Numbered from the stretch's first letter, positions 32 to 22,725 are shown. The stretch is DNA of 47,560 bases from a virus (IMGVR_UViG_2630968533_000001); one strand, 5' to 3'. Notes: generated by a model from the sequence alone, not told the origin. Translations and numbers: made by a program.

Positions 32-40
32 GTGCTCATA

Positions 41-153
41 GAATTATATAATTATATATTTATATAAAAAGTGCTTTACAGGTGGGAAAAAATTTCCTAT
101 GGTTATGCCCGAAACCGAGCGATACCCGCCCTGGTTAAACCGGAGATAACCCG
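41..153 (+). promoter_or_regulatory. Conserved promoter-leader cassette, copy 1 (AT-rich palindrome, -35 TTTACA 75-80, 17-bp spacer, -10 TATGGT 98-103, conserved leader, GGAG SD)
   Basis: Near-identical to 9344-9461 and 16303-16415; sigma70-like hexamers with 17-bp spacing read directly; ends at ATG 154. Confidence 0.55.
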
Positions 154-534
154 ATGAGCATGATTAAAATCCGCAAAAACGCTTTCCTTAAAATTCAAAC
201 TATCCTGGCTGGTTCTGTTGGCGTGATTTGCCGTTCTTCTTCAAGCCGCATCGATGACGGCTACGATGATGAGTATCGTTTGTCCTCGTGCGATGAGGCT
301 TTAACCTGGCTGAAGGAGAATCAGGAACGTGCCCAGGTATATCTGGAAACAGAGAACGGCAATCAGATGCTCCGTATTAGCGGTCGTTATGGATTTGAAA
401 CCACATTCATGGCCTATTTTAATCAGGCTTACTTTGACAAGGAGTTGGCCTGGTACACTGATCGCATGAGCAAAAGCGAGCCAGCCCCGATTACACCGCC
501 GAACGATAAACCATTTTTATTCCTCGTTAAGTAA
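154..534 (+). CDS. Hypothetical protein (126 aa) expressed from cassette copy 1
   Basis: ORF track; ATG directly after the conserved leader and SD; no domain recognised. Confidence 0.6.
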   Translation: MSMIKIRKNAFLKIQTILAGSVGVICRSSSSRIDDGYDDEYRLSSCDEALTWLKENQERAQVYLETENGNQMLRISGRYGFETTFMAYFNQAYFDKELAWYTDRMSKSEPAPITPPNDKPFLFLVK

Positions 535-637
535 ACACAATGCGCAAAGTGTCAAAATGACACTTTGCGAGTGTTAATATAGGGGGCGTTTGAAGATAGA
601 TAACTTATTGTGGGGCAAGCCGATAACTTACATTGGG

Positions 638-1063
638 TTAGCTTGAATAGGTAGTTGGTATTTTGAGCATATGGCCAATCTCTTCGAGATGCTTAGATGG
701 ATTCTCCCCAGTCTTACCTTCATGTATTGACGCTATATAGTTCAAATTTTGAGCTGCCCCAAGAATCTCGGTGGCTGATGGAACAAGACGAAAGCCGATA
801 TGTAACTTTTTGATATAGAAAGGTAAAGTGGAATATTTCGCCATTAACTGTGCTGCGGAATCTTTTAGATCATGAATGATTTCTGGCTTTAAGTTCGAGC
901 CAGGATTCACTATTTTTGCTTGGTTACACAATAACAGATTGGATATTTTCCCTAGCTGTTCCCTGAATGAAATGTAAGGCTCAATAGCTCCTTTGACGAT
1001 GAGTTGGCCTAGAACAAAAACACTTACACCAGTGACCACGGTGACAAAAGCAGATGAACTCAT
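638..1063 (-). CDS. Hypothetical membrane-anchored protein (141 aa, N-terminal TM helix)
   Basis: ORF track; hydrophobic N-terminus SSSAFVTVVTGVSVFVLGQLIV; divergent from the HTH gene at 1165. Confidence 0.5.
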   Translation of the reverse strand: MSSSAFVTVVTGVSVFVLGQLIVKGAIEPYISFREQLGKISNLLLCNQAKIVNPGSNLKPEIIHDLKDSAAQLMAKYSTLPFYIKKLHIGFRLVPSATEILGAAQNLNYIASIHEGKTGENPSKHLEEIGHMLKIPTTYSS

Positions 1064-1164
1064 TTTTTACCTAAAGCCTAAAGATTGGATTGTTAATACA
1101 TCTTATTTTGTCGTGAGTGGCTATGTCTAATTTATTGAATATCTAGGGAAAGGTAGAGGATGTA

Positions 1165-1425
1165 ATGACGGGTTACGAATTGAAATTATGGCGTCGTGGG
1201 ATGAACTGGACGCAGGAGCGAGCCGCCGAAGAGTTTGGGATATCGTTGGCTACATATAAGCGATATGAGAAGGGTGAGCCGCCGAGGGTCATTGAGATGG
1301 CCATTCGCGTTCTGTCGTTTGACGATATGGTTAAGGATCTTTCACACCTTGATAAAGATGTGATTCTGTTAAGGCTGCAAACCCTTGTATGGGAAAAGGT
1401 TAAAGTGTCGTCAGAATTGGAATAA
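1165..1425 (+). CDS. Small HTH (XRE-like) DNA-binding protein
   Basis: ORF track; N-terminal LWRRGMNWTQERAAEEFGISLATYKRYEKG resembles a Cro/C1-type helix-turn-helix. Confidence 0.55.
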   Translation: MTGYELKLWRRGMNWTQERAAEEFGISLATYKRYEKGEPPRVIEMAIRVLSFDDMVKDLSHLDKDVILLRLQTLVWEKVKVSSELE

Positions 1426-1486
1426 GGGATCAAATGATCCTTTACGGATCGTTTTATGGTGGTGTAATGTAAGCGCCAGAAAGACA

Positions 1487-1510
1487 AAAACCGCCTTGCC
1501 GGGCGGTTTT
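1487..1510. terminator. Bidirectional intrinsic terminator-like hairpin (AAAACCGCC...GGCGGTTTT)
   Basis: Perfect stem ccgcc/ggcgg flanked by an A-run and a T-run. Confidence 0.5.
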
Positions 1511-2023
1511 CAGTCTGAAATTTAAATCTTGCTTGGTAGGCTGGATTTAAAAAGACACCTCTTGATTGGGGCGGCTTTCTTGCGTCTAAAGATAATCAAA
1601 TCTTTTTGCGCCTGCAACCCCTTTTTTACTGGTGCCCATTTCAGACTCACGCTCGCGTCGTTGTCTTTGCCACTTCGTTGGGTTCGGTGTTTTTGGGCGA
1701 AGTGGCGCGCGGGTATGCGTACAAGGGGAAAGTGTGCTGACGCAAGCCAGGAACAGCGATCTAAACTAAGTCGAGTCTGAGAAAGGCAGGAGTGCGACAA
1801 CTCGCCTGTGCTCTATGAGCAGAAGAAGGTATATCAGACGACCAATGGCATGATTGTGGGCCACAGGGCGCACACGGCGGCGAAGCATTGGAAACGATGT
1901 GGAGCTATCTGGTGGCATGAGTTCCGGTACTCGATCTCGAGCTTTTTTTGATGCTTTTGAGAAGGGGCCGGAACTCCGGTAAAGGGCACCCTGTATGGGG
2001 GGAGGGGGGGGTGTGTCTGAAGG

Positions 2024-2236
2024 GTGGTTATCGGTTATGGTGGAATTATGATGCGTAGAAAAGCGAGTTTGCTGCAAGCTGTTGGGTCCATTATTTCTTT
2101 GTTTCCGGCAGTTGATCATTTTCGTCATATGGCGACACGTTCCAGTATGGGCTTAGCGCGTGATGCTGACGCTATTCGAAAGGATTTTCAGAAAGTCTCT
2201 GGCGTTGATAAGAGAGAAAAGAGTAAGGGGCCGTAG
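2024..2236 (+). CDS. Small hypothetical ORF (alternative start ATG 2048), low confidence
   Basis: ORF track; ends just before the hairpin at 2225-2242; preceded by a G-rich tract; no homology recognised. Confidence 0.2.
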   Translation: MVIGYGGIMMRRKASLLQAVGSIISLFPAVDHFRHMATRSSMGLARDADAIRKDFQKVSGVDKREKSKGP

Positions 2237-2242
2237 CCCCTT
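2225..2242. terminator. Hairpin AAGGGGC-CGTA-GCCCCTT between convergent genes
   Basis: Perfect 7-bp stem directly downstream of the antirepressor stop (minus) and the small + ORF. Confidence 0.4.
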
Positions 2243-2246
2243 GTAG

Positions 2247-3416
2247 TTATGGTCTGCTCTTCTGTGCCAGCTTATCAGCACATGTTTTTATCAGATCCTG
2301 TAGTGTCCTGGCTGGCAGGTTTGCATCCAGTACGCTGAGTATGCTGTTGTGATCTGCTTGGTCGACTACTTTGCCTGTCGGTGGTAGTAGCTTGAGCTGA
2401 GGATTCAGGTTTTCGTCAAAGCTGATAAGTGCTCTGGCGTTTCTGAGCAGATCAAGAAGTAAGGCTGATATCACATTTTCCTGAGTCATTGCTGACAGAT
2501 TTAGCGCCGCTTTGGTTTTCCCTGTTGCCTTGTCAAACTCCTTGATTAGTTCCTTCCTGTAGTTCGGTTCCGTTAATAGCCGATTATGCTCTGTTGCCGC
2601 GCGGATAATCGTTTTTTCCTGGTACAGTCGTTTAGCCAGATCACGCTCGTACTGTGTTTTTAACACGCTGCTGATAGCGTTAAAGGCTTCAATGTAGGCC
2701 AGCTTGATATCTTTCACGCCTGGACCGTCGATACTTTCCATGAGCAAGGTAAATCCGTCTTTTGTCATGCGATAGATTGTTATTTCGCGGTCGCTTCCTT
2801 CCAGCGGTCGTTGCTCTTTAAAGAAATGACGTGCCGCAGCTGTGCGAGGAATGCGTAACGCATCGATGGCCATAACGATGGAATTGTTTGTGGTGCTGAA
2901 TGCCTGGGCAACATCGGCTGAGGTTGTGAGTGGCTCGTTGTTGCACACCTTAATGTAAAACATCGGTTTGGCGTTGAGCGTATCGACAACCTCACGAGCA
3001 TTGTTTGGCGAGACGGTTACGGTCGCGGCCGTTTGTGTGTTCTGGCTGAAATAGCAGTCTTCCAGCCGTTCGAACACATCCCAAGCCTGATCGGTTTCAA
3101 GCATTTTGGCGTGACGTGCAGCCCCGCGTTCTGTCCAGAGAATGAGGGAGCGGGCTTTCGGGGAAATTTGTAACCCTCTTAAAGATGGTTGCACATTTTG
3201 TGAGTGACTTAAAGTCACTCGCAAAGTTTTTAACTCATCGCCAGCCACTTTGAAAAAATGCTTTCCTTCAATAAAGCGGTTTGCGTTACGTGAGTAATTT
3301 TTTTTGATGTTATCAACGTCTGTGCCGTATAGCTTTGCCAGTAGTTCAGTAGTGATAACGGGGATCTGGTTATGCAGGATAGGCTGTAGGGTGTTAACGG
3401 TCGGAAGCGTTTTCAT
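2247..3416 (-). CDS. Phage antirepressor (N-terminal ORF6N-like and Rha-like domains)
   Basis: ORF track; N-terminal motif ITTELLAKLYGTDVDNIKKNYSRNANRFIEGKHFFKV typical of ORF6N antirepressors; central PLTTSADVAQAF segment Rha-like; start overlaps the stop of the upstream small ORF (ATGA). Confidence 0.65.
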   Translation of the reverse strand: MKTLPTVNTLQPILHNQIPVITTELLAKLYGTDVDNIKKNYSRNANRFIEGKHFFKVAGDELKTLRVTLSHSQNVQPSLRGLQISPKARSLILWTERGAARHAKMLETDQAWDVFERLEDCYFSQNTQTAATVTVSPNNAREVVDTLNAKPMFYIKVCNNEPLTTSADVAQAFSTTNNSIVMAIDALRIPRTAAARHFFKEQRPLEGSDREITIYRMTKDGFTLLMESIDGPGVKDIKLAYIEAFNAISSVLKTQYERDLAKRLYQEKTIIRAATEHNRLLTEPNYRKELIKEFDKATGKTKAALNLSAMTQENVISALLLDLLRNARALISFDENLNPQLKLLPPTGKVVDQADHNSILSVLDANLPARTLQDLIKTCADKLAQKSRP

Positions 3417-3604
3417 TTTGCACCTCCCATAACTACTTTGGTTACGAGGGAGATTTTTGCGTCAGAAACAGCGTTATCGTTGCTGGCGATGCGCATAGCT
3501 TCGCGCTCGATGATTTCAGCCAGGCGGAATTTATCGGCGTATGAGGCTTTCTTGAGAAGGATCTTTACGAGGTTGACGTAATAGTCATGGGGTAGGTTTG
3601 TCAT
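3413..3604 (-). CDS. Small protein (63 aa) translationally coupled to the antirepressor (icd-like position)
   Basis: ORF track; 4-nt overlap with the antirepressor start; SD-like AAGGGA upstream on the minus strand. Confidence 0.45.
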   Translation of the reverse strand: MTNLPHDYYVNLVKILLKKASYADKFRLAEIIEREAMRIASNDNAVSDAKISLVTKVVMGGAK

Positions 3605-3769
3605 TGTGATGATTCCCTTAAAGGTTAAGGATACTCACCACCGTCAGGTTCCAATCATTGGGTGGTGAGACGTGCAGGGTTGGAACTACCGGACACAATG
3701 ACGAACCGGCGAGTCTTACGACTCCCCCGCACGCCCCACCATAATTTGGGTGTAGCAGTGCTTTACGCA

Positions 3770-3869
3770 TAAAAAAACCGCTAACGCGGTATGCGCCATT
3801 GTGTCTACGGGGTTCCAATCCCGACCGTAGATTTTGCTACGGCTCGGAAAGTGTCCACCAATGGCGCAT
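3770..3869 (-). ncRNA. Candidate structured small RNA / leader element (c4-like hypothesis)
   Basis: On the minus strand an 11-bp terminal stem (3791-3801 with 3859-3869) encloses an inner hairpin ctacgg/ccgtag, followed by hairpin accgc-gtta-gcggt and a U7 run (3770-3790); loop sequence has a near-complement at about 3680-3695 in the downstream leader. Confidence 0.25.
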
Positions 3870-4360
3870 TCATGTCAATACGGCGGGATTTTAACAGAGA
3901 CAACCACATAGCGTGGGTTTATTGGTAGGCAGAAACAAAAAAACCGCCCTATTGAGGACGGTTCTTTCGTGCTGATCGGATTCGCGGTCCTTTCAGCATA
4001 ACGTCGTTGTATAAACAACCACGCAAGCACAAGCAGCAAGTTAATTTTACCCAAAAGGTAATAATAGTCCACTATTATGCTTCAAAAAATTGTGGTTCTT
4101 GTTGTGCCTGCAAACTCACAGATTGTGGGTAGGTTACTGATTTTGTGAAAATAAACGAGTTTTTTCGTTTAATTTCTTTCCTATTACTAATCTTAAAATA
4201 ATCGTAAAATACCTGTGGACCTTCCCGCCGATTCGCACCCGGGCACCGACTTTAGGGGAGGATTCTCCGTTGCCGTACATGCAAGCACAAGCAGCCGTGC
4301 TTGCTCTCGCGTTGTTTTCGTCGGTGGGGATGCCGTGAAACGGCCTGTAAGGGCCATACA

Positions 4361-4483
4361 ATGAAAAAATACTGTATGTGTATTTTTATCGTTGTTACTG
4401 GGGCTTTGTTTACGCCACATGGGGAGGGTTGGAAGATTACTGATAACGCTCTGAATGTGACGATAAACATTAGCAGCAAGTAG
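4361..4483 (+). CDS. Small hydrophobic ORF (40 aa, MKKYCMCIFIVVTGALF...), speculative
   Basis: In-frame ATG within ORF 4301-4483; hydrophobic N-terminus; followed by a strong terminator; no SD seen. Confidence 0.2.
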   Translation: MKKYCMCIFIVVTGALFTPHGEGWKITDNALNVTINISSK

Positions 4484-4487
4484 CGAT

Positions 4488-4512
4488 TAGGCCCCTTCGG
4501 GGGCCTTTTTTA
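4488..4512 (+). terminator. Rho-independent terminator (AGGCCCC-TTCG-GGGGCCT then T-run)
   Basis: Perfect GC-rich hairpin followed by TTTTTTAT. Confidence 0.55.
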
Positions 4513-4548
4513 TGGTTGAATTTAAACGCTGGAGGCCGTCACCTTCTC

Positions 4549-4797
4549 TTACTTCTGGTTGTATTGAGCCTTGAGTAACTCAAAAGATTTTGTCAGCACT
4601 TCTTTCAATGACATATCCATTGAGCTGGCGAACGTTTTGTACTCGCGTTTAAATTCAGGGTCGACGTTAAACGCCATTTGTGCCCCACCTGATTTGGTTC
4701 TGGTTGGCGTTTCAGTCGGGTCGAAAACCTGCGGTTGTTCGATCGATGGCGGTACGCCTTTGCTGTTCTTCTTTGGTGGTTTTGATGGTCCGGCCAT
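4549..4797 (-). CDS. ParG-like small ribbon-helix-helix partition/centromere-binding protein (82 aa)
   Basis: ORF track; lies directly downstream of parA in the same orientation; basic flexible N-terminus and C-terminal RHH-like segment MAFNVDPEFKREYKTFASSMDMSLKEVL; SD AGAGGGGA upstream. Confidence 0.5.
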   Translation of the reverse strand: MAGPSKPPKKNSKGVPPSIEQPQVFDPTETPTRTKSGGAQMAFNVDPEFKREYKTFASSMDMSLKEVLTKSFELLKAQYNQK

Positions 4798-4840
4798 GTG
4801 TATCCCCTCTTATATAAATCTATAAAACTATAATTATATA

Positions 4841-5509
4841 TTACGCGGCAGTAGTCAGAGCCTCAAGCTGGTTGATAATCCCCTGAATAACGTCGTCTGC
4901 CTTTTTGCGTGGCGCAACGTATGAGCATTCAATGAGGCTTAAGCCCTTATCCTGAGCTTTGCTCAGAGCTGGCTTGTGGGGAATGTACTTATCGACAACA
5001 AAGTATGGCGTATTAGCCAGGTACTCTTGGGCTTCAATGTAGTCGGCTTCGTTTTCAGCCGCGCCTGAGAACACCATGCAAATTTTCTTGATTGGCACAC
5101 CCTTTTTAACGATGCCGTGAGCTGTGTTAACGGTGGTTTCCAGGTCATCGGTAGAGAATCTGGTTGGCAAAATAACCATATCCAGAAATTCAGAGAGCTT
5201 CGGTACTGATTCAGATGCGTAGGCACCGCCATCGACGATAACCAGGTCGTATACTTCTGATTCGATGATTTTCTGGACTTGTGATGGCGTGCCGCACGGC
5301 TGCGCCGCGATTGCAGGTTCGATATTGTTGGCCATTCTGCGTTGTACCCAACGCGTTACCGTTCCGTTAAGCACATCCATATCGATCAGGCATACATTCC
5401 AGCCGGCCTTTGCATAAGCAACTGCTAAAGCACGGGCAATTGTTGATTTGGTTACGCCGCCTTTTCCGTTGAAAATACCTACAGAGATAGTCATTTGTCG
5501 AGACTCCAT
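4841..5509 (-). CDS. parA: ParA/ParF-type partition ATPase
   Basis: ORF track; deviant Walker A GKGGVTKST near the N-terminus; about 220 aa, typical of small type Ib ParA proteins. Confidence 0.85.
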   Translation of the reverse strand: MESRQMTISVGIFNGKGGVTKSTIARALAVAYAKAGWNVCLIDMDVLNGTVTRWVQRRMANNIEPAIAAQPCGTPSQVQKIIESEVYDLVIVDGGAYASESVPKLSEFLDMVILPTRFSTDDLETTVNTAHGIVKKGVPIKKICMVFSGAAENEADYIEAQEYLANTPYFVVDKYIPHKPALSKAQDKGLSLIECSYVAPRKKADDVIQGIINQLEALTTAA

Positions 5510-5511
5510 GT

Positions 5512-5620
5512 ATTTGGTTATATAATTCTATAAATCTATATTTATAGAACGAGGTAAGCATAACCAACTTTTTGGCGGATGAAAAGCGTTTTATATAATT
5601 ATATAAATCTATAATCATGT
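5512..5620. repeat. Iterated AT-rich boxes upstream of parA (putative partition operator/centromere-like site)
   Basis: Two related boxes (5518-5549, 5589-5616) containing TATATAATT(A/C)TATA and AATCTATA; perfect 14-bp palindrome TATATAATTATATA at 5592-5605. Confidence 0.4.
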
Positions 5621-5644
5621 AAGCGGGCGTTAGCCCGCTTTCAG

Positions 5645-6019
5645 TCAGAGGTCAGCTATCGTTGATATCAGTTGATTTGCTAGCTGTCGCTGTTTACGTG
5701 AGAGGGTGAGAGCAGCTTCTGAGCGGTCGCTAAGAGGGGTGTTTTCATCAAGAATCATGAGGCATACAGAAATAATAGCCCTGTTATATGCCATCAATGG
5801 CTGGCACAGCTTCGATATCGCTGGCACATCGTATTGTAAGGCCGTTTTGAGGCAGACTTTTTGTTCTGATGCCAGATGAAGGATAGATTCTATCCAGTCG
5901 ATATCTTTCTCATTATCAATGATTTGGCATAACATACACTCAATCGCTATGTTCAACGCTTGGATTTCGATTCCAGCAGTGATCAGAGTTTCGTTTTTAT
6001 TGGCTGTATGTAATTCCAT
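5645..6019 (-). CDS. Hypothetical protein (124 aa) downstream of the repressor
   Basis: ORF track; no domain recognised; operator-like palindrome sits just upstream of its start. Confidence 0.5.
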   Translation of the reverse strand: MELHTANKNETLITAGIEIQALNIAIECMLCQIIDNEKDIDWIESILHLASEQKVCLKTALQYDVPAISKLCQPLMAYNRAIISVCLMILDENTPLSDRSEAALTLSRKQRQLANQLISTIADL

Positions 6020-6052
6020 GCGTAGCCTCTTTTATACTTTTACATGTTGTCA

Positions 6053-6071
6053 AAACCACAAAATGTGGTTT
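6053..6071. promoter_or_regulatory. Operator-like palindrome AACCACA-N3-TGTGGTT
   Basis: Perfect inverted repeat read directly; same half-site family as the palindromes in the cI/cro intergenic region. Confidence 0.35.
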
Positions 6072-6111
6072 TTTTGAGCGTAGAAATGCACGGCTTTCGC
6101 CGTGCTGTGTA

Positions 6112-6768
6112 TCATAACCAGTTGACAACACTAACTACGCGGCCAAGAACTTTATAACGCTTAAATTCCTCGTTATTCAGATGCTTAGTGTTCATTTCAG
6201 CATCCCTTTCGGTTGACAGCATAACAGCATTGTCACCCGGTATGACTCTACAGTGCCTCAAAACAACCAGGCCATTTCTGTCTTCAAGGGCATAGATCCC
6301 CTCATGAATCTCTGTATCGTCTGTATTAATCAGGACTTGGGAGCCAGGGGATATTGTTGGTGACATTAACTCATCGTTGCTCTGGAGAACTGACAGAGAC
6401 GATGGGTTGATGTTCTTGCTTCGTAGAATCTCCTGTTCTATCGCCAGCACTGGCTTTTCTCCGGCGTGCGATGCTATGTCATTTTTTATAGCTACAAGCC
6501 CAGGAATAACAGGAGCGTTAGTATTCTGGGGTGGGAACGGGTTATCTGTTAAGCACGCGATATAAGGCGCTGATGCTTTCAGGGCGTGCGCGATTTTCTT
6601 GATGGCAGGTATAGATGGTTGTCTTAATCCGGCCTCATAGTTCTGCAAGGTGCTTAAGCCTATTCCAGTGACTTGCTGGAGATCTCCGGCAGTCATGCCG
6701 GATTGTTTCCGTAGAGTCTGAATGCGCAGACCTATTTCTTTCTTGATGTTCTCGTCGTTGCTTTTCAT
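6112..6768 (-). CDS. cI-like repressor (N-terminal HTH plus C-terminal S24/LexA-like peptidase domain)
   Basis: ORF track; N-terminal HTH IGLRIQTLRKQSGMTAGDLQQVTGIGLSTLQNYEAG; C-terminal autocleavage-type domain; divergent from the cro-like gene. Confidence 0.8.
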   Translation of the reverse strand: MKSNDENIKKEIGLRIQTLRKQSGMTAGDLQQVTGIGLSTLQNYEAGLRQPSIPAIKKIAHALKASAPYIACLTDNPFPPQNTNAPVIPGLVAIKNDIASHAGEKPVLAIEQEILRSKNINPSSLSVLQSNDELMSPTISPGSQVLINTDDTEIHEGIYALEDRNGLVVLRHCRVIPGDNAVMLSTERDAEMNTKHLNNEEFKRYKVLGRVVSVVNWL

Positions 6769-6941
6769 GTCTCATCAATCGTGAATGGTGGGTTATTTAT
6801 ACATTACCACATTTAGTGGTTTTCACATGGTAAGACGAGAGGTGGACCACAAATAGAAGGTTATTTTTTGTTTCGCCCATTGAAAAACTCACGATATGTG
6901 GTTTTAATACCACATATCGTGGTTTAACTGGAGTTCGTTAA
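6769..6941. promoter_or_regulatory. Divergent repressor/cro promoter-operator region
   Basis: 12-bp perfect inverted repeat CACGATATGTGG/CCACATATCGTG at 6890-6921 and ACCAC-N5-GTGGT at 6806-6820 between the divergent genes. Confidence 0.5.
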
Positions 6942-8582: not shown

Positions 8583-8911
8583 GATATACCGGCTTTCGCA
8601 AACCAGCGACAAGGAAAAGCAAATACGGCAATAAAAAAACGGTTGTCGATGATATCGCTTTTGATAGCAAAAAAGAGGCTGATTACTACTGCGAACTGAA
8701 GCTACTGAGAAAAGCTGGCCGCGTTGTGACGTTTCTTATGCAGGTGCCTTTTCATCTGCCAGGTGGTGTCGTTTATAAACTTGATTTCATGGTGTTTTAT
8801 GACGATGGGACGATTGATTGTGTCGACACTAAAGGTGTGCGAACAGACGTCTACATCATGAAGAAAAAGCAGGTAGAGGCGCTTTATCCCGTCACGATAC
8901 GGGAGATCTGA
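8579..8911 (+). CDS. DUF1064-like phage protein
   Basis: ORF track; N-terminal KYGNKKTVVDDIAFDSKKEADYYCEL matches the DUF1064 signature as recalled. Confidence 0.5.
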   Translation: MRYTGFRKPATRKSKYGNKKTVVDDIAFDSKKEADYYCELKLLRKAGRVVTFLMQVPFHLPGGVVYKLDFMVFYDDGTIDCVDTKGVRTDVYIMKKKQVEALYPVTIREI

Positions 8912-8914
8912 ACA

Positions 8915-9292
8915 GTGAGACGCGATCTGGATAGCTTGTTTGAGCTATGGGCGCTGTGGGTGCGCAATGGCTGCAACGCCCGTAGCGGTTTCGCGTCGAT
9001 GTTAGAAATGATGATGGTTACGCGCTGCCAGTTTACCGGAGGGGGCGGCGCACCAAATGACTCACTGGAAACCAGTATAGAGGGAGCGGTGACGGCCCTC
9101 ACGGTAGTTGATGAGACTGCGGCGCTGGTTGTCCGAATTGAATACGGGGCGTGGGAGATTCGGGGCCTCGACATAAATGCACCGCATATTGATAAAGCCC
9201 ACGCCCTTTCTCTTAGCCTCAGACAGTATCGCCGGAAGCTGGCAAAAGCCAGGGCGTATGTTGTCGACTATTTGAAAAAGCGAAGAGAGTAA
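8915..9292 (+). CDS. Hypothetical protein (125 aa)
   Basis: ORF track; N-terminal LFELWALWVRNG motif; family unresolved. Confidence 0.4.
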   Translation: MRRDLDSLFELWALWVRNGCNARSGFASMLEMMMVTRCQFTGGGGAPNDSLETSIEGAVTALTVVDETAALVVRIEYGAWEIRGLDINAPHIDKAHALSLSLRQYRRKLAKARAYVVDYLKKRRE

Positions 9293-9343
9293 AAGTGTCA
9301 TTTTGAGCTGTTTTGATGGTGTGTAGACATCGGGAACATCGAA

Positions 9344-9461
9344 AATCTATAAATATATAATTATAGATTTATATAAAAAGTGCTTTACAGGTGGGAAAAA
9401 ATTTCCTATGGTTATACCCGAAACCGAGCGATACCCGCCCTGGTTAAACCGGAGAAATCTG
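9344..9461 (+). promoter_or_regulatory. Conserved promoter-leader cassette, copy 2
   Basis: About 95 bp identical to copies 1 and 3 (TTTATATAAAAAGTGCTTTACAGGTGGGAAAAAATTTCCTATGGTTATACCCGAAACCGAGCGATACCCGCCCTGGTTAAACCGGAG); ends at ATG 9462. Confidence 0.55.
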
Positions 9462-10529
9462 ATGAATAAACAAGTAATTATTTCTGACTGGATCAACAAC
9501 CCTAACAGCCTGTTAAGCACTGATACTGGCTACCTATTACGCCATGTTAATGGTCGTATGGTCAAAAGCGATGAGCACGAAACCTTTTTCTTTGTTGAAG
9601 ACGATGGGCGTATCTATGAGGATGGTTACTCTTATGAAGCCCAAACTGGTTGTATCCCTGCGGAGCTGGTGGACGTAACAGAAGATCTGCGCAAAGCATG
9701 GCTTGAACAGCAGCAGCGCGGAGATGATTACGTAAACACCTATCAGGAACGCCAGAACGCGCGTCTTGCCCGATATATTGCTCGTGCAGAAAAAGCCAGA
9801 AAAGAAGGTGCGGTAGCGCATAAGCGAGCGCATGACCTGTTGGATGTGATCCCGTTAGGCCAGCCGATTTTAGTTGACCATTATAGCGCGAAAGGCCATC
9901 GCCGCCGTTTGTCTAAAGCTGATGCGTTATTCAGAAAAGCGTTTGTTGAATGCGAAAGTAAAGCATCACACTACGAGAGCAAAGCCGCAGGTGTTGGTCG
10001 TAATGGAATTTCGTCTGATGATCCTGATGCGCTATTTAAGTTGCTTCGTAAGCTGCAAGGCTGCATGAAGTCACACGTCAAAATGAAGGCCGCAAATAAG
10101 GCCATTCGCAAATACAAAAAAGACCAAATACAGCAGCTTTCTGCATTAATCGATCTCAGGTTTACAGAAAGCGAAGCCAAAGAGTTACTGGCCGGAGATT
10201 TCTGTGGGCACATCGGATTCCCTTCATACGCACTGAGCAACAATAACGCCGAAATCAAACGACTACAGAGCCGTATTAAGGAGCTTGAATCGGTCAAGTC
10301 TGTAACAGGAGCACAGCGCGAAGAATACGACGGCTTTTCTATGGAGATAGATCCAGAGGATAACCGCATCCTGTTTTATTTCCCTGGCAAACCAGAGGCA
10401 AACATTCGTTCGCTGCTTAAATCACGCGCCTTTAAGTGGAGTCCAACCCGTAATGCATGGGTTCGCAAGATTACTCCAAACGCCCTGGCTGATGCCCGAT
10501 ATCTAAAAGAATCGCTATTGAAAGCCTGA
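9462..10529 (+). CDS. Hypothetical protein (356 aa) expressed from cassette copy 2
   Basis: ORF track ORF 9408-10529, but the ORF-track start lies inside the conserved leader; ATG 9462 sits at the same position relative to the leader as in copies 1 and 3. Confidence 0.55.
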   Translation: MNKQVIISDWINNPNSLLSTDTGYLLRHVNGRMVKSDEHETFFFVEDDGRIYEDGYSYEAQTGCIPAELVDVTEDLRKAWLEQQQRGDDYVNTYQERQNARLARYIARAEKARKEGAVAHKRAHDLLDVIPLGQPILVDHYSAKGHRRRLSKADALFRKAFVECESKASHYESKAAGVGRNGISSDDPDALFKLLRKLQGCMKSHVKMKAANKAIRKYKKDQIQQLSALIDLRFTESEAKELLAGDFCGHIGFPSYALSNNNAEIKRLQSRIKELESVKSVTGAQREEYDGFSMEIDPEDNRILFYFPGKPEANIRSLLKSRAFKWSPTRNAWVRKITPNALADARYLKESLLKA

Positions 10530-10538
10530 CAGTAAGCC

Positions 10539-10568
10539 TACGGCGGGACGTCTCCCGCCGTATATAGA
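10539..10568 (+). terminator. Intrinsic terminator-like hairpin (CGGCGGGA-CGTC-TCCCGCCG) with T/A-rich tail
   Basis: Perfect 8-bp GC-rich stem directly after the stop at 10529. Confidence 0.45.
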
Positions 10569-10606
10569 ATTATATATTTATACAAATGTATAAGGACGCC
10601 TCGACA

Positions 10607-10888
10607 ATGAAACGCAAAATTATTAACCCCCAAGATGTGATTAATTTCCTGACCGATCACCCATGTTCAAAAGTGGACGTAATCGCGGAGCACATTGGTG
10701 TGTCGCAGAACTCTATGCGTTGCAGACTGAGAAGCATGGTTGCCGAAGGACAGATAACAACCAGGAAAATAAATGGTTGCCTGTACTACTCCGCTAAACC
10801 GGAATTGCCATTTGGCATGAATCCTAACTCCATGTTGTTTAACACCTTATTAGCCAAAGTTAAGCCGTTGAGAGGGGCTGTGGCATGA
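10607..10888 (+). CDS. Putative winged-HTH DNA-binding protein (93 aa)
   Basis: ORF track ORF 10586-10888; in-frame ATG 10607 with SD AAGGA; motif DVIAEHIGVSQNSMRCRLRSMVAEGQI resembles a wHTH. Confidence 0.45.
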   Translation: MKRKIINPQDVINFLTDHPCSKVDVIAEHIGVSQNSMRCRLRSMVAEGQITTRKINGCLYYSAKPELPFGMNPNSMLFNTLLAKVKPLRGAVA

Positions 10889-11250
10889 GCATCAAAACCC
10901 ATACCGGAATAATCATTACCAATGATGGTGAGAAAAAAGTGAAGTTGCGCGAGACGCCGACAACCTGGTGTGTTGGTCCGAAAGAAACATATCGCAAGGA
11001 AGATGGCCGTCGTTGTGGGGCACCACTTTCCCGCCGTCGCCTCCTTTTGAGCACGATAAAACCTATCGGGCAGGTTGAGCAACCAACGACTCCGGTAACG
11101 AAGATTTCAGACAAGAGTCTGGCAAACCTGATCGCCGATGCGGACAAGGTGCTGGAGCGGAACACCCCAGTAGCCGATGAGGAATGGTGGCAGGATTTCC
11201 GAGCCGCAATGCTAGAGCTTCAGGAACGTCGTCGGGAGGAGTTGAAGTGA
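10885..11250 (+). CDS. Hypothetical protein (121 aa)
   Basis: ORF track; coupled start/stop. Confidence 0.45.
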   Translation: MSIKTHTGIIITNDGEKKVKLRETPTTWCVGPKETYRKEDGRRCGAPLSRRRLLLSTIKPIGQVEQPTTPVTKISDKSLANLIADADKVLERNTPVADEEWWQDFRAAMLELQERRREELK

Positions 11251-11438
11251 GCAAGAAAAATGCCGGATGGGTCAGGCCAATGAAGGCGAATAAACATCAT
11301 TATTTTAATGAAGGTGAAGTAACCAGCATTTGCGGCCGTTGGATGTATTTTGGTGATTACCGTGAGCCAGACACTTTTGAGAGTCCTGATGATTGCGTGT
11401 CTTGTCGCCGGAAATTGAACAAGGTGGCTTCTAAATGA
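11247..11438 (+). CDS. Small CxxC zinc-ribbon-like protein (GTG start)
   Basis: In-frame GTG 11247 within ORF 11184-11438, preceded by strong SD GGGAGGAG; contains ICGRW ... CVSCRR. Confidence 0.4.
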   Translation: MSKKNAGWVRPMKANKHHYFNEGEVTSICGRWMYFGDYREPDTFESPDDCVSCRRKLNKVASK

Positions 11439-12118
11439 AAGAACGTGGTGTTGTTTTTAATGACGATATGGTTAGGGCCATCCTCGAAGGAAGGAAGACG
11501 CAGACTCGCCGACCTGTAAAAAATGTCAGGGCCGATAACTGCCTGGTTATCCGTAAACCGACAAAGAAACGCAATGGTGTCTATACCCACGTTATGGATG
11601 CACCGGAACATGGTTTATGCCCGTTCGGTAACGTTGGTGATCGCATATGGGTCCGTGAAGCGTGGGCGATATTAGGCAATGAGGATGGTTGCAGTGTGGA
11701 CTGGAACGACAACCTTTGTCGTGGCGATGAGAAGAACGCAGCAAGGATTTATCGGGCCAGTTGTGAGCAAAAGTCTGGTGATTACGGTTTATGGTCGATA
11801 CCCGATGATGCCGACTGGAAACCTCACACTGTGAATGAAAAGTTTGATGGCGGGTGGCGTCCATCAATTCACATGCCGCGCTGGGCTTCACGTATTTTGC
11901 TGGAAATTACCGACGTGCGTGTGGAACGGCTGCATGACATGAGCGAGGCAGATGCTAAAGCAGAAGGCGCATCTCCGGTGACGTACAAGATTACACCGCC
12001 GGAAGCTGTTTATCGCGTTGGCTTTGGTGATATCTGGCGCGGTATTTACGGGCAAGAGAACTGGCTATCTAACCCGTGGGTATGGGTAATTGAGTTTAAG
12101 CGTATTAAGGAAGCATAA
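11435..12118 (+). CDS. ASCH-domain-like protein
   Basis: ORF track; N-terminal FNDDMVRAILEGRKTQTRRP typical of ASCH/PUA-like proteins as recalled. Confidence 0.45.
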   Translation: MKERGVVFNDDMVRAILEGRKTQTRRPVKNVRADNCLVIRKPTKKRNGVYTHVMDAPEHGLCPFGNVGDRIWVREAWAILGNEDGCSVDWNDNLCRGDEKNAARIYRASCEQKSGDYGLWSIPDDADWKPHTVNEKFDGGWRPSIHMPRWASRILLEITDVRVERLHDMSEADAKAEGASPVTYKITPPEAVYRVGFGDIWRGIYGQENWLSNPWVWVIEFKRIKEA

Positions 12119-12120
12119 CT

Positions 12121-12465
12121 ATGAGCAAATCACTTAACGCACGCTGCATCCGTCGCTGGACCGTCGAATTTAAAGGCCGCTGCGACTCAAAATATAGCCC
12201 GTATTGGCGTAAGCGCGACCTGCGGGGGTACATCCGTGAGGTTGCACTGAACACCGCGGATTGCATGGTCGAGCGTATGGCCGAGGATAATGCGATGGTA
12301 GATTTTCAGGGGGCTAATCGAGGATGGTCGCCGGAGTTCTCAGCCTGGTACCACGAACGCCGTGAACAGTATCTCAAAGAGGCGCGCGACCATCTGAACG
12401 AAGACGCCACCAATGACGAGGTTGACGAGGAGATTCAGAACGAGCTGGAGGCCTGGAATGACTAA
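12121..12465 (+). CDS. Hypothetical protein (114 aa)
   Basis: ORF track. Confidence 0.45.
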   Translation: MSKSLNARCIRRWTVEFKGRCDSKYSPYWRKRDLRGYIREVALNTADCMVERMAEDNAMVDFQGANRGWSPEFSAWYHERREQYLKEARDHLNEDATNDEVDEEIQNELEAWND

Positions 12466-13177
12466 CAGCACAGCAATTAACTATCAGGCACTACGTGAGA
12501 TAGCAAAACAGGCAACACAGGGCGAATGGGTCGCATTTATTTCGCCGGGCAAACACGGCACGTACGCTGTGCACACACCAGGAGATAATCATCACGGAGA
12601 TATTGTCGACTGGCCAGGATTCGACGAACAGAAAAACGCAGAGAACAACGCTCGTTATATCGCAGCTTTCAACCCAGAAGTAGTGCAGGCGTTGCTGAAT
12701 GAACGGGAAGCACAAAGCAAACGCATTGCTGAACTGGAGGCCAGTCGTGCGGCGCTGGCGGCGGAGAATGCAGGGCTTAAGGCGATATGTGATGACCGTC
12801 GCAGGTTCATCATGAATGGGGTGCAGACGGGTTATATCAAGGTGCCAACAGCGGAAACAGCTCCAGACCTTGAGACAATTCGCATTGCTATATCACCACA
12901 AAAGCCCATTCCAGCCACCGATGCTTTCCTGGCTGAAATACGTGCGGAGGCACGCAACGAGGGGATTAACTACACCGCAAGCCGTCTTGCTGCTGCGTTC
13001 AATCACGGATTTATCAATAAGTCTTTGCGTGAAGTTTTCGACGTTACACGCATGATTTTGTCAGCGAAAGAAGAGTTGGCTAATGAACCGCACCCGATTG
13101 ATGGCCTGTCCGGTGAATATGCGGAGAAATCTCTTGAGGAGTGGGCGGAACAGATTCGTAAAGGAGGCGACAAGTGA
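12458..13177 (+). CDS. Ead/Ea22-like protein
   Basis: ORF 12413-13177; likely start ATG 12458 after SD GGAG; N-terminal NYQALREIAKQATQGEWVAF plus coiled-coil, typical Ead/Ea22-like signature as recalled. Confidence 0.5.
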   Translation: MTNSTAINYQALREIAKQATQGEWVAFISPGKHGTYAVHTPGDNHHGDIVDWPGFDEQKNAENNARYIAAFNPEVVQALLNEREAQSKRIAELEASRAALAAENAGLKAICDDRRRFIMNGVQTGYIKVPTAETAPDLETIRIAISPQKPIPATDAFLAEIRAEARNEGINYTASRLAAAFNHGFINKSLREVFDVTRMILSAKEELANEPHPIDGLSGEYAEKSLEEWAEQIRKGGDK

Positions 13178-13365
13178 GCAATTTAGCGAGGCTACGAGCA
13201 GTATTTAGATATTCAGAGCGGGTAATGAGGCACATACAACCGAAAACATGGCAGAAATTGGATTCTGTGGGAGTTAAGTTGGAGAAGATTACTCAACTTA
13301 AGCAGTGGAATATCGGCGAATATTATGGAAGTCCTGGTCGGGATGTTCAGTTGGTAAAAAGTTGA
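13174..13365 (+). CDS. Hypothetical small protein (63 aa)
   Basis: ORF track. Confidence 0.35.
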   Translation: MSNLARLRAVFRYSERVMRHIQPKTWQKLDSVGVKLEKITQLKQWNIGEYYGSPGRDVQLVKS

Positions 13366-13511
13366 ACATTGCTTTTTTATTGATCGATTAACCACGATAT
13401 GAAGGTTTTTTTATGGGGAAACCTTGTTTTAGGTGGTAACTGGGTGTAGTGTTTCATTTAACGTAGTAAAACTGCGTTAAGCGATTACCGCGTAATTTGT
13501 TGCTTTATGAA

Positions 13512-13542
13512 GCCCTGCCTTTTTCGGCGGGGCTTTTTTTTT
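13512..13542 (+). terminator. Intrinsic terminator immediately upstream of the holin gene (tR'-like position)
   Basis: 8-bp stem GCCCTGCC/GGCGGGGC (one G-U pair) followed by a T9 run, 14 bp before the holin start. Confidence 0.5.
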
Positions 13543-13555
13543 AACGAGGATTTCA

Positions 13556-13951
13556 ATGTCAGCAGAACCAATTTCCGGTACGGCCGTTGCTGCTGGTGGC
13601 CTGATGGGTGCCAGCGTTTTTGGTATTGCAACTGGTATTGATTACGGCGTTGTATTCGGGGCATTTGCTGGCGCTGTTTTCTATGTTGCTACAGCGGTGA
13701 ATATTAGCCGTCTCAAGCTGATTGGCTATTTCTTTACATCGTTCATTGTTGGAGTGATTGGAGCGCCGTTAGTTGGCTCATTTCTTGCCAAATGGACCAG
13801 CTACAACGATCGACCTCTTGATGCGCTTGGTGCGGTTATTGTGGCTGCATTGACAATTAAAATCCTCACGTTCGTAAACAGCCAGGATCTCGGTAGCATC
13901 TTTGGAATGCTTTCCCGCTTACGTGGAGGGGGTTCAAATGGTAAGCAGTGA
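13556..13951 (+). CDS. Holin-like membrane protein (131 aa, multiple TM segments)
   Basis: ORF track; Gly/Ala-rich hydrophobic segments; first gene of the lysis cassette. Confidence 0.5.
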   Translation: MSAEPISGTAVAAGGLMGASVFGIATGIDYGVVFGAFAGAVFYVATAVNISRLKLIGYFFTSFIVGVIGAPLVGSFLAKWTSYNDRPLDALGAVIVAALTIKILTFVNSQDLGSIFGMLSRLRGGGSNGKQ

Positions 13952-14234
13952 CCCGTCAGCACTGATTAATGCGGTGCTTTGCACAGTAATAGTAATGGCG
14001 CTGATGCTTTATCGACGGAAAGACTCCAGGCATCGTCCATTTGTTTCCTTTCTGGCTTATATCTACGTCATTGTATACGCCAATGTTCCCTTCCGTTATG
14101 TGTTCGGTCTTTATCAAGAATCCCACTGGCTGGTGGTTATTGGAAATCTGATTATCTGCATCGTTGTTCTGTATTTCAGGGGCAATCTGGCGCGGATAGT
14201 TGACGCATTAGGATTTAATCATGACCAAAGATGA
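13938..14234 (+). CDS. Second holin/antiholin-like membrane protein
   Basis: ORF 13902-14234; likely start ATG 13938 with SD GGAGGGGG; three hydrophobic segments. Confidence 0.4.
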   Translation: MVSSDPSALINAVLCTVIVMALMLYRRKDSRHRPFVSFLAYIYVIVYANVPFRYVFGLYQESHWLVVIGNLIICIVVLYFRGNLARIVDALGFNHDQR

Positions 14235-14763
14235 GATTTTTAACAGCATTCTTGGAAAAGAGGGCGGCTATGTGGATCACCCTGACGACAAGGGAGGCCC
14301 AACAATGTGGGGCATCACTCAGAATACTGCCCGTGCTCACGGATACCGTGGCGATATGCGAGATCTGACGCGAGAACAGGCTCTGATGATTCTTGAAGGT
14401 GATTATTGGTATGGGCCTCGTTTTGACCAGGTGGCGCAATTTTCCCCTGATATTGCGGCTGAGATGTGCGATACGGGCGTCAACATGGGGCCGACTGTGG
14501 CTACGAAGATGCTTCAACGTTGGCTGAATGTTTTCAACCGTGGCGGGAAGTTGTATCCAGATATGGATGTGGATGGGCGAATCGGCCCGCGCACCATTGC
14601 GGCATTACGTGCTTATCTTGGGAATCGGGGAAAAGACGGCGAACGGGTAATGCTGACGGCCCTGAACTGTACGCAGGGCGACCGTTATCTGGACCTGGCG
14701 GAGAAACGCGAAGCAAATGAGTCGTTTGTCTATGGCTGGATGAAAGAGCGAGTGGTGGTATGA
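14221..14763 (+). CDS. Endolysin (GH108-like N-terminal domain plus peptidoglycan-binding C-terminal domain)
   Basis: ORF track; N-terminal GKEGGYVDHPDDKGGPTMWGIT is the GH108 signature as recalled; position between holin and spanins. Confidence 0.8.
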   Translation: MTKDEIFNSILGKEGGYVDHPDDKGGPTMWGITQNTARAHGYRGDMRDLTREQALMILEGDYWYGPRFDQVAQFSPDIAAEMCDTGVNMGPTVATKMLQRWLNVFNRGGKLYPDMDVDGRIGPRTIAALRAYLGNRGKDGERVMLTALNCTQGDRYLDLAEKREANESFVYGWMKERVVV

Positions 14764-15038
14764 CTGGTTTGAAGGCCGTTTTGTCATTTATTGGCACAAT
14801 TATATTGGTTGCATTCGGCGCGTTTGGTTTTGGTCGTATGAAGGGGCGAGAAAAGGCCGAAGATGAAGCTGAAAAGCAGCGCATTAATGAGAATGCAGCC
14901 GCCGTAAAAGCCACTGCGGAGCGGCGTATAGAAGTGACAAAAGAGGTGGGGAATGTACAGCAGAGTGTTAACCATATGGCTGATGACGATGTTGATCGCG
15001 AGCTGCGGGAGTCGTGGAAGCGTCCCGGTGGTGGTTGA
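14760..15038 (+). CDS. i-spanin (Rz-like)
   Basis: ORF track; N-terminal TM helix then charged coiled-coil; Rz1-like ORF begins inside its 3' end. Confidence 0.55.
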   Translation: MTGLKAVLSFIGTIILVAFGAFGFGRMKGREKAEDEAEKQRINENAAAVKATAERRIEVTKEVGNVQQSVNHMADDDVDRELRESWKRPGGG

Positions 15039-15162
15039 TACCGCCTGTGATTGGGTAAAGCCCATCTACCTGACTGATCACGACATCGATGTTATGGACC
15101 GCCAGACAAAGAAAGATATTCTGGCTCATAACAGGGCATGGGAAATCAACTGTCCAAAGTAA
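14953..15162 (+). CDS. o-spanin (Rz1-like lipoprotein) overlapping Rz in another frame
   Basis: ORF track; signal peptide with lipobox-like LIASC; starts within the Rz coding region. Confidence 0.55.
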   Translation: MYSRVLTIWLMTMLIASCGSRGSVPVVVDTACDWVKPIYLTDHDIDVMDRQTKKDILAHNRAWEINCPK

Positions 15163-15331
15163 TATATATTTCTATAATTATATAAATATATAGTTACAAC
15201 ATTCTATGCGCTTTTCTCATGGGCGCACGCATCAACCATGTTTGTCTGATATGCCGCCGCGCCCAAAAATCCTGAATTTATTGGCTGGGATTTTCGTGCG
15301 CGGCGCCACACCAGACAAACAAATCAAATAT

Positions 15332-15407
15332 GGCCCCTTAGCTCAGTGGTTAGAGCAGGCGACTCATAATCGCACGGTCATCGGTTCAAATCCGGTAGGG
15401 GCCACCA
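15332..15407 (+). tRNA. tRNA with CAT anticodon (tRNA-Met or lysidine-type tRNA-Ile2-like)
   Basis: Cloverleaf read by hand: acceptor GGCCCCT/AGGGGCC, D-arm GCTC/GAGC, anticodon loop CTCATAA (CAT at 15365-15367), T-arm ATCGG-TTCAAAT-CCGGT, encoded CCA; G1-C72 paired so not an initiator; 5' half resembles E. coli ileX as recalled. Confidence 0.85.
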
Positions 15408-15714
15408 ATTCACTCTCACACATAAAGATAAGCGCGGTGGAGTTACTTCTTCGTGCTCATCTTTATGCGTGCCTGGTGCGCATTTCGGGCGAACGTGGGG
15501 CTAAGTTACAGGCAGGGCCTGTTATCCGCAAAGGGGTAAAAGCTGGAGCGGCACGGAACTGTAGCCGTGTTACCAAAACAGCGTTGTCGGGCGATATCCG
15601 GCACACAACAGGCAAGGGCATTAATCAGTCTGGTTAGCGCCCTTTTCGTTGTGTTTGCTGTAGAGCTGGCCAGCGTTATGACTGCCGGAGATAAGCGCCG
15701 GAGGCACAATTAAC

Positions 15715-16302
15715 ATGGAGGAAATTGCATTGTTTAATCTGATTTATGCAGATCCCCCCTGGGAATACAAAGACAAGTGTAAGGATGGGAATCGTGGAGC
15801 TGGTTTTAAGTATCCAACGATGAAAGCTGAGGAGATTGCTCGTATTCCTGTCTGGCAGCTTGCTAATCCTGAATCGTGTTTGTTGGCCATGTGGTGGGTT
15901 CCGACTCAGCCAGAAGAAGCGTTGCTGGTGGTGAAAGCATGGGGATTCAGGCTTATGACCATGAAGGGCTTCACATGGAACAAATGTGGTAGCCGACAAC
16001 CAGATAAGCTGGTGATGGGGATGGGGCATATGACTCGTGCAAACAGTGAAGATTGCTTGTTTGCGGTAAAAGGCAAATTGCCGACCCGCCTTGATGCGGG
16101 GATCATTCAGTCGTTTACATCGCTTCGTCTGGAGCATTCTCGGAAGCCTGATGTGGTTCGTGACAAGCTGGTAAGGCTGTTAGGTGATGTTCCTCGTATT
16201 GAGCTGTTTGCTCGCGGTGATTTACCTGATGGTTGGCATGGCTGGGGCAACCAGTGCAATGGAGGTATCCAGTTGCATGATGCTCTCTGGCAAGTGGCAT
16301 AG
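15715..16302 (+). CDS. MT-A70 family adenine DNA methyltransferase
   Basis: ORF track; catalytic DPPW motif in LIYADPPWEYK near the N-terminus. Confidence 0.8.
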   Translation: MEEIALFNLIYADPPWEYKDKCKDGNRGAGFKYPTMKAEEIARIPVWQLANPESCLLAMWWVPTQPEEALLVVKAWGFRLMTMKGFTWNKCGSRQPDKLVMGMGHMTRANSEDCLFAVKGKLPTRLDAGIIQSFTSLRLEHSRKPDVVRDKLVRLLGDVPRIELFARGDLPDGWHGWGNQCNGGIQLHDALWQVA

Positions 16303-16415
16303 AATTATATAATTATATATTTATATAAAAAAGTGCTTTACAGGTGGGAAAAAATTTCCTATGGTTATACCCGAAACCGAGCGATACCCGCCCTGGTTAA
16401 ACCGGAGATAACCCG
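16303..16415 (+). promoter_or_regulatory. Conserved promoter-leader cassette, copy 3
   Basis: Near-identical to copy 1; perfect palindrome TATATAATTATATA at 16306-16319; -35 TTTACA 16337-16342, -10 TATGGT 16360-16365. Confidence 0.55.
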
Positions 16416-22720: not shown

Positions 22721-22725
22721 ACCTC

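Follow-up and report, generated by a model that had tools for sequence, protein, structure and literature searches.

Eight short tandem arrays were identified in the DNA analysed here, a stretch of 47,560 nucleotides from a virus (IMGVR_UViG_2630968533_000001, hereafter the window) which is a circular myovirus-type phage-plasmid of 47.5 kb. Three of the arrays lie in its partition (par) operon, where a small parA is followed by a gene for an 82-aa ribbon-helix-helix (RHH) protein, and five lie at other genes. The comparisons below make it probable that all eight four-unit arrays are bound by this RHH protein, those at par serving as a type Ib centromere/operator and the same protein occupying the five dispersed modules; there is good support for the eight sites themselves and, on comparative sequence grounds, for their link to the RHH protein. 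Phage-plasmids are frequent in clinical Enterobacteriaceae.

The repeat unit is 8 bp long, TATA[T/G]AWT, and each site consists of four units in tandem, giving 32 bp (Table 1). Position frequencies across 31 units are T.89, A.83, T.95, A.95, T.65 or G.29, A.92, A.65 or T.29 and T.62 or A.26. The original prediction, made from the sequence of the window, had described a dispersed 14-bp palindrome, TATATAATTATATA, with related AT-rich boxes at eight intergenic sites. Its coordinates were right both for the list of eight sites and for the three perfect copies (45-58, 5592-5605 and 16306-16319, where 100 dinucleotide shuffles led to an expectation of 0). When up to two mismatches were allowed 19 matches were observed, all within the eight sites, compared with 0.22 expected (largest shuffle 2). 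The palindrome is not the functional unit it was taken for, as it is just two adjacent 8-bp units, and a supposedly separate companion box, AATCTATA, is the opposite-strand reading of the unit TATAGATT. Likewise, the single dyad proposed for one dimer is replaced by a tandem array which, by analogy with the partition proteins ParG and omega, would hold approximately four dimers. The description of all sites as intergenic holds strictly for six arrays, the exceptions being array 2, which abuts the parA stop codon, and array 8, which overlaps the final codons of the MT-A70 gene.

A position weight matrix was built from the three arrays at par only and, when tested on the remaining window, found exactly the other five sites, with scores of 29.5–41.5 bits, while the rest of the 47.5 kb scored below 20 bits. 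The highest shuffle scores for this matrix were 19.7 bits (dinucleotide) and 21.8 bits (200-bp blocks, local composition kept). There are five A/T-only runs of at least 18 nt in the window and all are within arrays. Units are present in both orientations, so the arrays have no single polarity, and both strands score nearly alike in the matrix scan. A uniform polarity towards the downstream gene, of the kind seen in stoperators, was considered and is ruled out by the mixed unit orientation and near-equal strand scores. All eight arrays fall within the early/maintenance part of the element (1-16.4 kb), with none in the virion genes or near repA.

Table 1. Arrays and associated features of the window, in order of position.
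Feature	Class or position	Coordinates	Strand	Units or description
Array 1	class A	37..68	+	CATAGAAT TATATAAT TATATATT TATATAAA; 37.8 bits; ends 6 bp before cassette 1 -35
Cassette copy 1		75..153	+	-35 TTTACA (75-80), 17-bp spacer, -10 TATGGT (98-103), ~50-nt leader
82-aa ParG-like protein gene		4549..4797	-	predicted disordered basic N-terminal tail, then predicted RHH domain (ribbon QMAFNV)
Array 2		4809..4840	-	TATATAAT TATAGTTT TATAGATT TATATAAG (read on the - strand); 38.7 bits
parA		4841..5494	-	217 aa, small Walker-type ParA without N-terminal DNA-binding domain (type Ib-like)
Array 3	B position	5517..5548	-	TCTATAAA TATAGATT TATAGAAT TATATAAC
Inferred parA promoter		5557..5585	-	-35 TTTTCA (5585-5580), 17-bp spacer, -10 TATGCT (5562-5557)
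Array 4	A position	5590..5621	-	(TACATGAT) TATAGATT TATATAAT TATATAAA; ends 4 bp upstream of -35
Array 5	class A	9346..9377	+	TCTATAAA TATATAAT TATAGATT TATATAAA; directly upstream of cassette copy 2
Array 6	class B	10563..10594	+	TATAGAAT TATATATT TATACAAA TGTATAAG
Array 7		15163..15194	+	TATATATT TCTATAAT TATATAAA TATATAGT
Array 8	class A	16298..16329	+	identical to array 1; overlaps MT-A70 stop codon

Read on the minus strand, the par locus consists of a terminator, array 4, the promoter, array 3, a ribosome-binding site, parA, array 2 and the 82-aa open reading frame (ORF). The terminator hairpin of the upstream gene (5621-5640) abuts the far end of array 4. Array 3 begins 8 bp past the inferred -10 and so extends over the beginning of the parA leader, with 9 bp left between its end and the ribosome-binding site of parA, whilst array 2 fills the 43-bp gap between parA and the parG-like gene and abuts the ribosome-binding site of the latter. 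The promoter is below the threshold of a consensus scan and was inferred from its conserved position, all lineages examined having a promoter between arrays A and B. The ParA protein gave Pfam matches to CbiA, ParA and MipZ across its full length and also matches the PHROG ParA-like family.

The N-terminal half of the 82-aa protein is rich in Pro and Lys and predicted to be disordered, and in the AlphaFold2 model of the protein an extended segment, QMAFNV, is followed by two helices with a predicted local distance difference test score (pLDDT) above 90. A full HMMER search with this protein produced 58 matches at E up to 0.001, mostly relatives of approximately 62–140 aa, with a few long matches that rest on the Pro/Lys-rich tail only. 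Pfam RHH_10 is matched by 17 of the 44 aligned family members and others match Antitox_RHH or 56B_RHH; the Pfam ParG family (PF09274) is matched by neither the window protein nor any of the 44 relatives. The top matches of an alignment-based model in Foldseek were almost all RHH proteins (the PutA DNA-binding domain, CdbA, CopG, AmrZ, ParD and Arc), with TM-scores to the target of 0.6–0.87 among the best matches. A flexible tail and an RHH domain encoded downstream of a small ParA give an architecture that resembles TP228 ParG, and these predictions are consistent with an RHH-fold protein that is ParG-like in architecture only. Sequence comparisons make it the most likely binder of all eight arrays.

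Loci for comparison, designated by L and a number, were gathered via individual RHH relatives and then by a ParA-profile scan of IMG/VR viral contigs. All eight arrays are present at homologous positions in a Salmonella Weltevreden plasmid (L002), the par region of which is only 79% identical, and also in the close relative Yersinia phage vB_YpM_39 (L015). The layout of terminator, array A, promoter, array B, ribosome-binding site and parA was observed in all of the lineages inspected (at least 12), with cores that are lineage-specific: TATA/CATA in L005, CTTTA in L004, L007, L008 and L010, CGCTA in L006, CGTTA in L011, CGACC in L014 and TGTAC in L012. In L013 (plasmid contig GCA_003353935.1) the core is GGAACCAR, present in approximately 43 tandem copies at 8922-9272 upstream of the ParA/RHH pair, an unusually long and regular candidate centromere. 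Arrays equivalent to array 2 are present in the parA-parG gap of L004, L010, L012 and L011. An RHH ORF lies directly downstream of parA in 73 of 80 IMG/VR contigs containing ParA relatives, and for 39 of 74 distinct loci the tandem period that fitted best upstream of parA was 8 bp. In total about 70 ParA/RHH loci were compared, ordinary plasmids with no more than this gene pair in common among them, and arrays of 8-bp period next to parA are frequent in the set.

Two of these loci have only ParA and the RHH protein in common with the window, namely L011 (a plasmid-like contig with a type IV secretion system coupling protein) and L013 (a plasmid with Ank and DnaB), and both carry arrays of 8-bp period beside parA. 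The cI-like repressor, the 124-aa neighbour and the helix-turn-helix (HTH) proteins are therefore excluded as the common binder. This bears on the proposal that the arrays are operators of another regulator of the element, whether the winged-HTH protein (10607-10888), an 86-aa HTH protein (1165-1425) or the 124-aa protein (5645-6019), and that their association with par is coincidental. The position of array 6 directly before the winged-HTH gene would suit autoregulation, and most phage-plasmid lineages show synteny of the 124-aa protein with parA. However, 8-bp arrays are found by parA in L011, L013, L014, L012 and L006, where ParA and the RHH protein are the sole homologues of window proteins. 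L005 and L010 also have arrays although their version of the 124-aa protein is truncated or cannot be recognised, and the core tracks the ribbon of the RHH protein. Another regulator is thus considered very unlikely.

A Serratia plasmid (L003) has a lambda-like virion module instead but an early region in common with the window, its ParA being 53% and its RHH protein 38% identical. Six arrays were detected with units of the WWTNTTTA/TAAATAWW type, each scoring at least 36 bits (highest shuffle 25.7); two flank the parA promoter, three are upstream of cassettes homologous to those of the window and one abuts a ribosome-binding site. The par promoter and the three cassettes of this plasmid therefore carry TTTA/TAAA-type arrays in place of the TATA type. 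That all arrays have switched core while the promoters remain homologous is the mark of an element-encoded specificity determinant that acts in trans. It also argues against the arrays being protein-independent or host-factor elements, such as UP elements, -10-like AT-rich sequence, bent DNA or nucleation sites for H-NS, IHF or Fis. Such roles would fit the class A arrays, which end 4–6 bp upstream of the -35 hexamer in the position of an UP element, and the arrays do contain TATAAT and are the most AT-rich tracts of the genome. They have no need, however, of a strict 8-bp register with four units, and arrays are also present downstream of a promoter, in the parA-parG gap and against ribosome-binding sites, whilst relatives in related hosts have other cores at the same positions, some of them containing G and C (CGTTA, CGCTA, AGCTA, GGAACC). 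Host factors or DNA structure are accordingly rated as less probable still. The suggestion that the arrays are plain promoters or UP elements was rejected, since the cores that relatives carry in those positions can be non-TATA or contain G and C.

Pairing of ribbon and core was assessed by a cross-scan with five core matrices. The best core was TATA for the ribbons QM[A/S]FNVD, LLTFNID and QLLLQLD, CTTTA for x[ML]NFN.. and [PN]LNFK.., CGTTA for PMNFKVD and NLNFKVP, CG[C/T]TA for DLNFKV. and DLGFKVS, and AGCTA for PMTFNMP. The claim that one element-encoded protein, probably the ParG-like RHH protein, acts as operator or centromere binder both at par and at unrelated promoters has therefore gained strong comparative support, comprising the 8-bp arrays that accompany ParA/RHH pairs sharing no other gene, the covariation of core with ribbon and the concerted core change in Serratia. 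The natural ribbon-to-core series (TATA, CTTTA, CGTTA, CGCTA, AGCTA, GGAACC) may be of use in understanding or engineering DNA recognition by RHH proteins, and also in predicting partition incompatibility between co-resident phage-plasmids.

Beyond the par locus, arrays 1, 5 and 8 end 6–7 bp before the -35 of a cassette present in three copies (TTTACA, 17-bp spacer, TATGGT, leader of ~50 nt, ATG). A terminator at 5-27 precedes array 1, and the leader of cassette copy 1 contains a small hairpin and ends at the ATG (154) of a 126-aa ORF. Copy 2 (-35 at 9384, -10 ending at 9412) drives a DUF3560 gene (9462). Copy 3, directly downstream of array 8 (-35 at 16337, -10 ending at 16365), drives an 89-aa ORF at 16416 which opens the next rightward gene block. 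Array 6 is located between a hairpin (10541-10560) and the ribosome-binding site and 'CCTCGACAATG' start region of the winged-HTH gene (10607), and array 7 lies past the lysis genes, approximately 140 bp upstream of a tRNA gene (15332-15407). Among relatives, arrays well outside par with scores above the shuffle maxima were found in L007 (four by matrix scan, and a fifth just downstream of parG), L010, L008 and L003, and of the 24 distinct viral loci whose arrays are strong, 20 have dispersed ones. Among these are lineages with G/C-containing cores (L040, L047, L051, L061), the arrays often lying directly after a terminator hairpin. In the non-phage loci L011 (20 kb flank) and L013 (12 kb) all arrays are at the par locus, a sample of two loci only. 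As judged from these sequences, dispersal is a family trait of the phage-plasmid lineages.

The cassette is a sigma-70 promoter/leader element found three times per genome (window 69-153, 9378-9461 and 16330-16415) and present also in L002 and, as a homologous three-copy cassette, in L003. The three copies evolve in concert, those of Salmonella sharing substitutions absent from the three of E. coli. Two compensatory AU-to-GC pair changes between lineages were observed in the leader hairpin, which suggests a conserved element of the 5' untranslated region; folded alone, the leader has a stability that is not significant (z = -0.87), the support being for the small hairpin only. The start region of parA, GGAG-N-CTCGACAAATG (5492-5507), recurs at 10595-10610, in L003 at 27700-27730 and in L010 at ~6560, and each of the genes concerned is preceded by an array abutting the ribosome-binding site; the array-plus-leader end of the par operon seems to have been copied as a unit. 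Within the window, the 'CTCGACAA' start motif that parA has in common with array 6 does not reach significance, and its recurrence in other lineages is only suggestive. In BLAST comparisons with dozens of related plasmids, alignments begin or end exactly at 32-44 (array 1) or 16419/16420 (the ATG that follows cassette 3), indicating that the modules coincide with junctions of gene-module exchange between relatives. These breaks and the concerted evolution of the cassettes would suit arrays and cassettes that are mainly recombination junctions and have no regulatory or partition role outside par, but this is barely credible, as module boundaries at regulatory elements are expected anyway and the four-unit architecture, the match to the par arrays, the core change with the RHH protein and the dispersal in lineages that have no cassettes are all left unexplained.

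Several observations weigh against binding of the arrays by the 82-aa protein. The window protein itself has no Pfam match (E up to 0.1) and no PDB sequence match, a family profile included, and the fold assignment therefore rests on the Pfam matches of relatives and on Foldseek, the individual E-values of which are non-significant because the domain is small (43 residues). Although the core appears to track the ribbon, as read-out by an RHH beta-ribbon predicts, it does so imperfectly; this is a correlation among related loci with statistics that ignore phylogeny, and loci with a PMNFKV ribbon score for both CTTTA and CGTTA. The class A arrays are at the position of UP elements and contain TATAAT-like hexamers, so part of the array sequence could serve RNA polymerase directly. 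Nothing relevant was found in the literature on the motif or on RHH centromeres in phage-plasmids.

If the RHH protein does bind the arrays, one dimer would occupy each 8-bp unit (a 4-bp TATA core plus a 4-bp A/T spacer), and each array would then be coated cooperatively by approximately four dimers. Arrays 4 and 3 would bracket the parA promoter, from about -41 to -72 (A) and from about +2 (B), resulting in autoregulation, and arrays 4, 3 and 2 would jointly make up a type Ib centromere and autoregulatory operator, with the basic N-terminal tail of the bound protein stimulating ParA. The same protein would be present on the five further modules, three of them upstream of cassettes, one at the ribosome-binding site of the winged-HTH gene and one upstream of the tRNA gene. 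On class A modules it would lie at about -40 to -72, the position of an UP element or of the C-terminal domain of the RNA polymerase alpha subunit (alpha-CTD), whereas on arrays 3, 2 and 6 it would be placed past the transcription start, at a roadblock or leader position. Expression of the operons linked to the five modules would then depend on the level of the partition protein. By analogy, repression is the likeliest outcome, and the dispersed modules may possibly act as extra minimal centromeres, with or instead of regulation. A more far-reaching model, in which the RHH partition protein has been recruited as a genome-wide regulator sensing copy number, with lytic replication multiplying the 32 boxes per genome, titrating the protein and releasing the operons, is rather doubtful. 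On that model, which would apply to a widespread family of enterobacterial and environmental phage-plasmids, the protein would, as long as the prophage-plasmid is at low copy number, sit on the four-box modules of its own promoter and of a set of portable promoter and ribosome-binding-site modules, three identical cassettes per genome among them. Were it true, segregation, copy number and the phage developmental programme would be coupled through one 82-aa protein and, as protein specificity and all sites would co-evolve, the regulon and incompatibility group of each lineage would be private.

The first 17 kb of the window are 100% identical to plasmid p5 of E. coli strain 254D-1 (NZ_JBWJYR010000006.1; 47,558 bp, circular), window positions being those of the record minus 910. 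Approximately 60 sequenced plasmids, among them one of E. coli ATCC 25922, carry the same par region at 96–99.7% identity, and infectious close relatives have been isolated (Yersinia phages vB_YpM_39/41/44). The element encodes a P2-like contractile-tail virion module, terminase, portal and lysis proteins, a cI-like XRE/S24 repressor, a RelE-type toxin-antitoxin pair and an IncFII-type RepA in addition to the small ParA and the 82-aa ORF that follows it. Membership of the 'pSLy3' phage-plasmid group was considered and dropped, as pSLy3 falls in the SSU5 supergroup, which is a phage-plasmid lineage of its own. Immediately beside the par operon, Rfam matches at gathering score to C4 antisense RNA, isrK and ryfA were obtained at 3658-3746 (-), 3771-3843 (-) and 4215-4511 (+), adjoining genes for Rha and an ORF6N antirepressor, which suggests an antisense-controlled antirepressor module of the P1/P7 immI type and possibly also a locus resembling a type I toxin.

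A perfect inverted repeat with 13-bp arms, CACGATATGTGGT...ACCACATATCGTG, is located at 6890-6921 in the divergent region beside the cI-like repressor gene, and more ACCAC/GTGGT boxes are present near this gene (also at 6800-6850). These are probably operators of the cI-like repressor and unrelated to the TATA arrays, from which the original prediction had kept them apart. Two proteins with a ParB/Srx N-terminal domain are encoded at 18290-18913 and 21579-22169 (19200-19823 and 22489-23079 in the p5 record); they are the only ones of their kind in the window, adjoin methyltransferase and terminase genes away from parA and are unlikely to be partition proteins. The tRNA gene downstream of array 7 is annotated as tRNA-Ile in p5 and its homologue in Yersinia phage vB_YpM_39 as tRNA-Met, an assignment that a CAU anticodon would make ambiguous.

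Among known systems the closest parallel to the par locus is ParF/ParG of TP228, in which one ParG dimer binds each 4-bp box, boxes are separated by 4-bp AT-rich spacers and the sites are both centromere and operator (PMC3130281). In both systems a small Walker ParA precedes a protein of ~80 aa in which a flexible N-terminal tail is joined to a C-terminal RHH domain, and as in TP228 parH/O_F the boxes have an 8-bp period, are direct and inverted and form arrays upstream of the ATPase gene. The ParG-type site architecture is thus present in the window as an 8-bp register with a TATA core, an A/T spacer and both orientations, and the arrangement of a type Ib-like array next to the par promoter is conserved across lineages. 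In contrast, the window core is TATA rather than the ACTC of TP228, and the window protein is outside Pfam ParG. Four-box modules flank the promoter in the window where TP228 has a 12-box and an 8-box block, and the window additionally has an array in the parA-parG gap and five modules at other promoters up to ~11 kb away.

The dispersal of sites is more reminiscent of omega of pSM19035, the tandem 7-bp repeats of which overlap three promoters and are needed in at least four contiguous copies to activate ParA (PMC9499535). In pSM19035, as is proposed for the window, an RHH centromere-binding protein has short tandem repeats at several promoters (copS, delta and omega in pSM19035), making omega both a partition adaptor and a global regulator; five window arrays lie outside par in the same manner, and the omega minimum of four repeats is exactly the size of the window module. 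Omega differs in having heptads (WATCACW) in arrays of 7–10 as compared with 8-bp units in arrays of four, and in belonging to a Firmicute plasmid with copy-control targets, whereas the window is a phage with sites at accessory/early operons and a three-copy cassette. The window protein gave no PDB sequence match, omega structures included. Partition-protein sites are also scattered on N15 (SopB) and RK2 (KorB, O_B), some of them in promoter regions (review PMC5016525, citing Ravin & Lane 1999, Grigoriev & Lobocka 2001 and Balzer 1992). SopB and KorB are large HTH ParB proteins (type Ia) binding single palindromes, unlike the small RHH protein and tandem arrays of the window, and the window element, a circular P2-like myovirus with an IncFII-type RepA, is of a different lineage from N15.

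The stoperators of mycobacteriophage L5 are single asymmetric 13-bp sites of fixed polarity bound by the immunity repressor, and many copies lie in short intergenic regions of the prophage genome, some blocking elongation rather than initiation. Arrays 2, 3 and 6 similarly lie downstream of promoters. Unlike stoperators, however, the window arrays are near-palindromic and without polarity, and the candidate binder is a partition protein, not the cI-like repressor. No description was found of the RHH family itself, the four-box design flanking the promoter, the parA-parG gap array, the spread of modules to a three-copy cassette and to ribosome-binding sites in phage-plasmid genomes or the lineage-wide co-evolution of the core. 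By analogy, the system of the window probably works like a type Ib centromere-operator of the ParG/omega type with dispersed sites, and control of five other modules by its partition protein would provide a simple link between segregation and gene control, similar to that of omega and KorB but in a phage.

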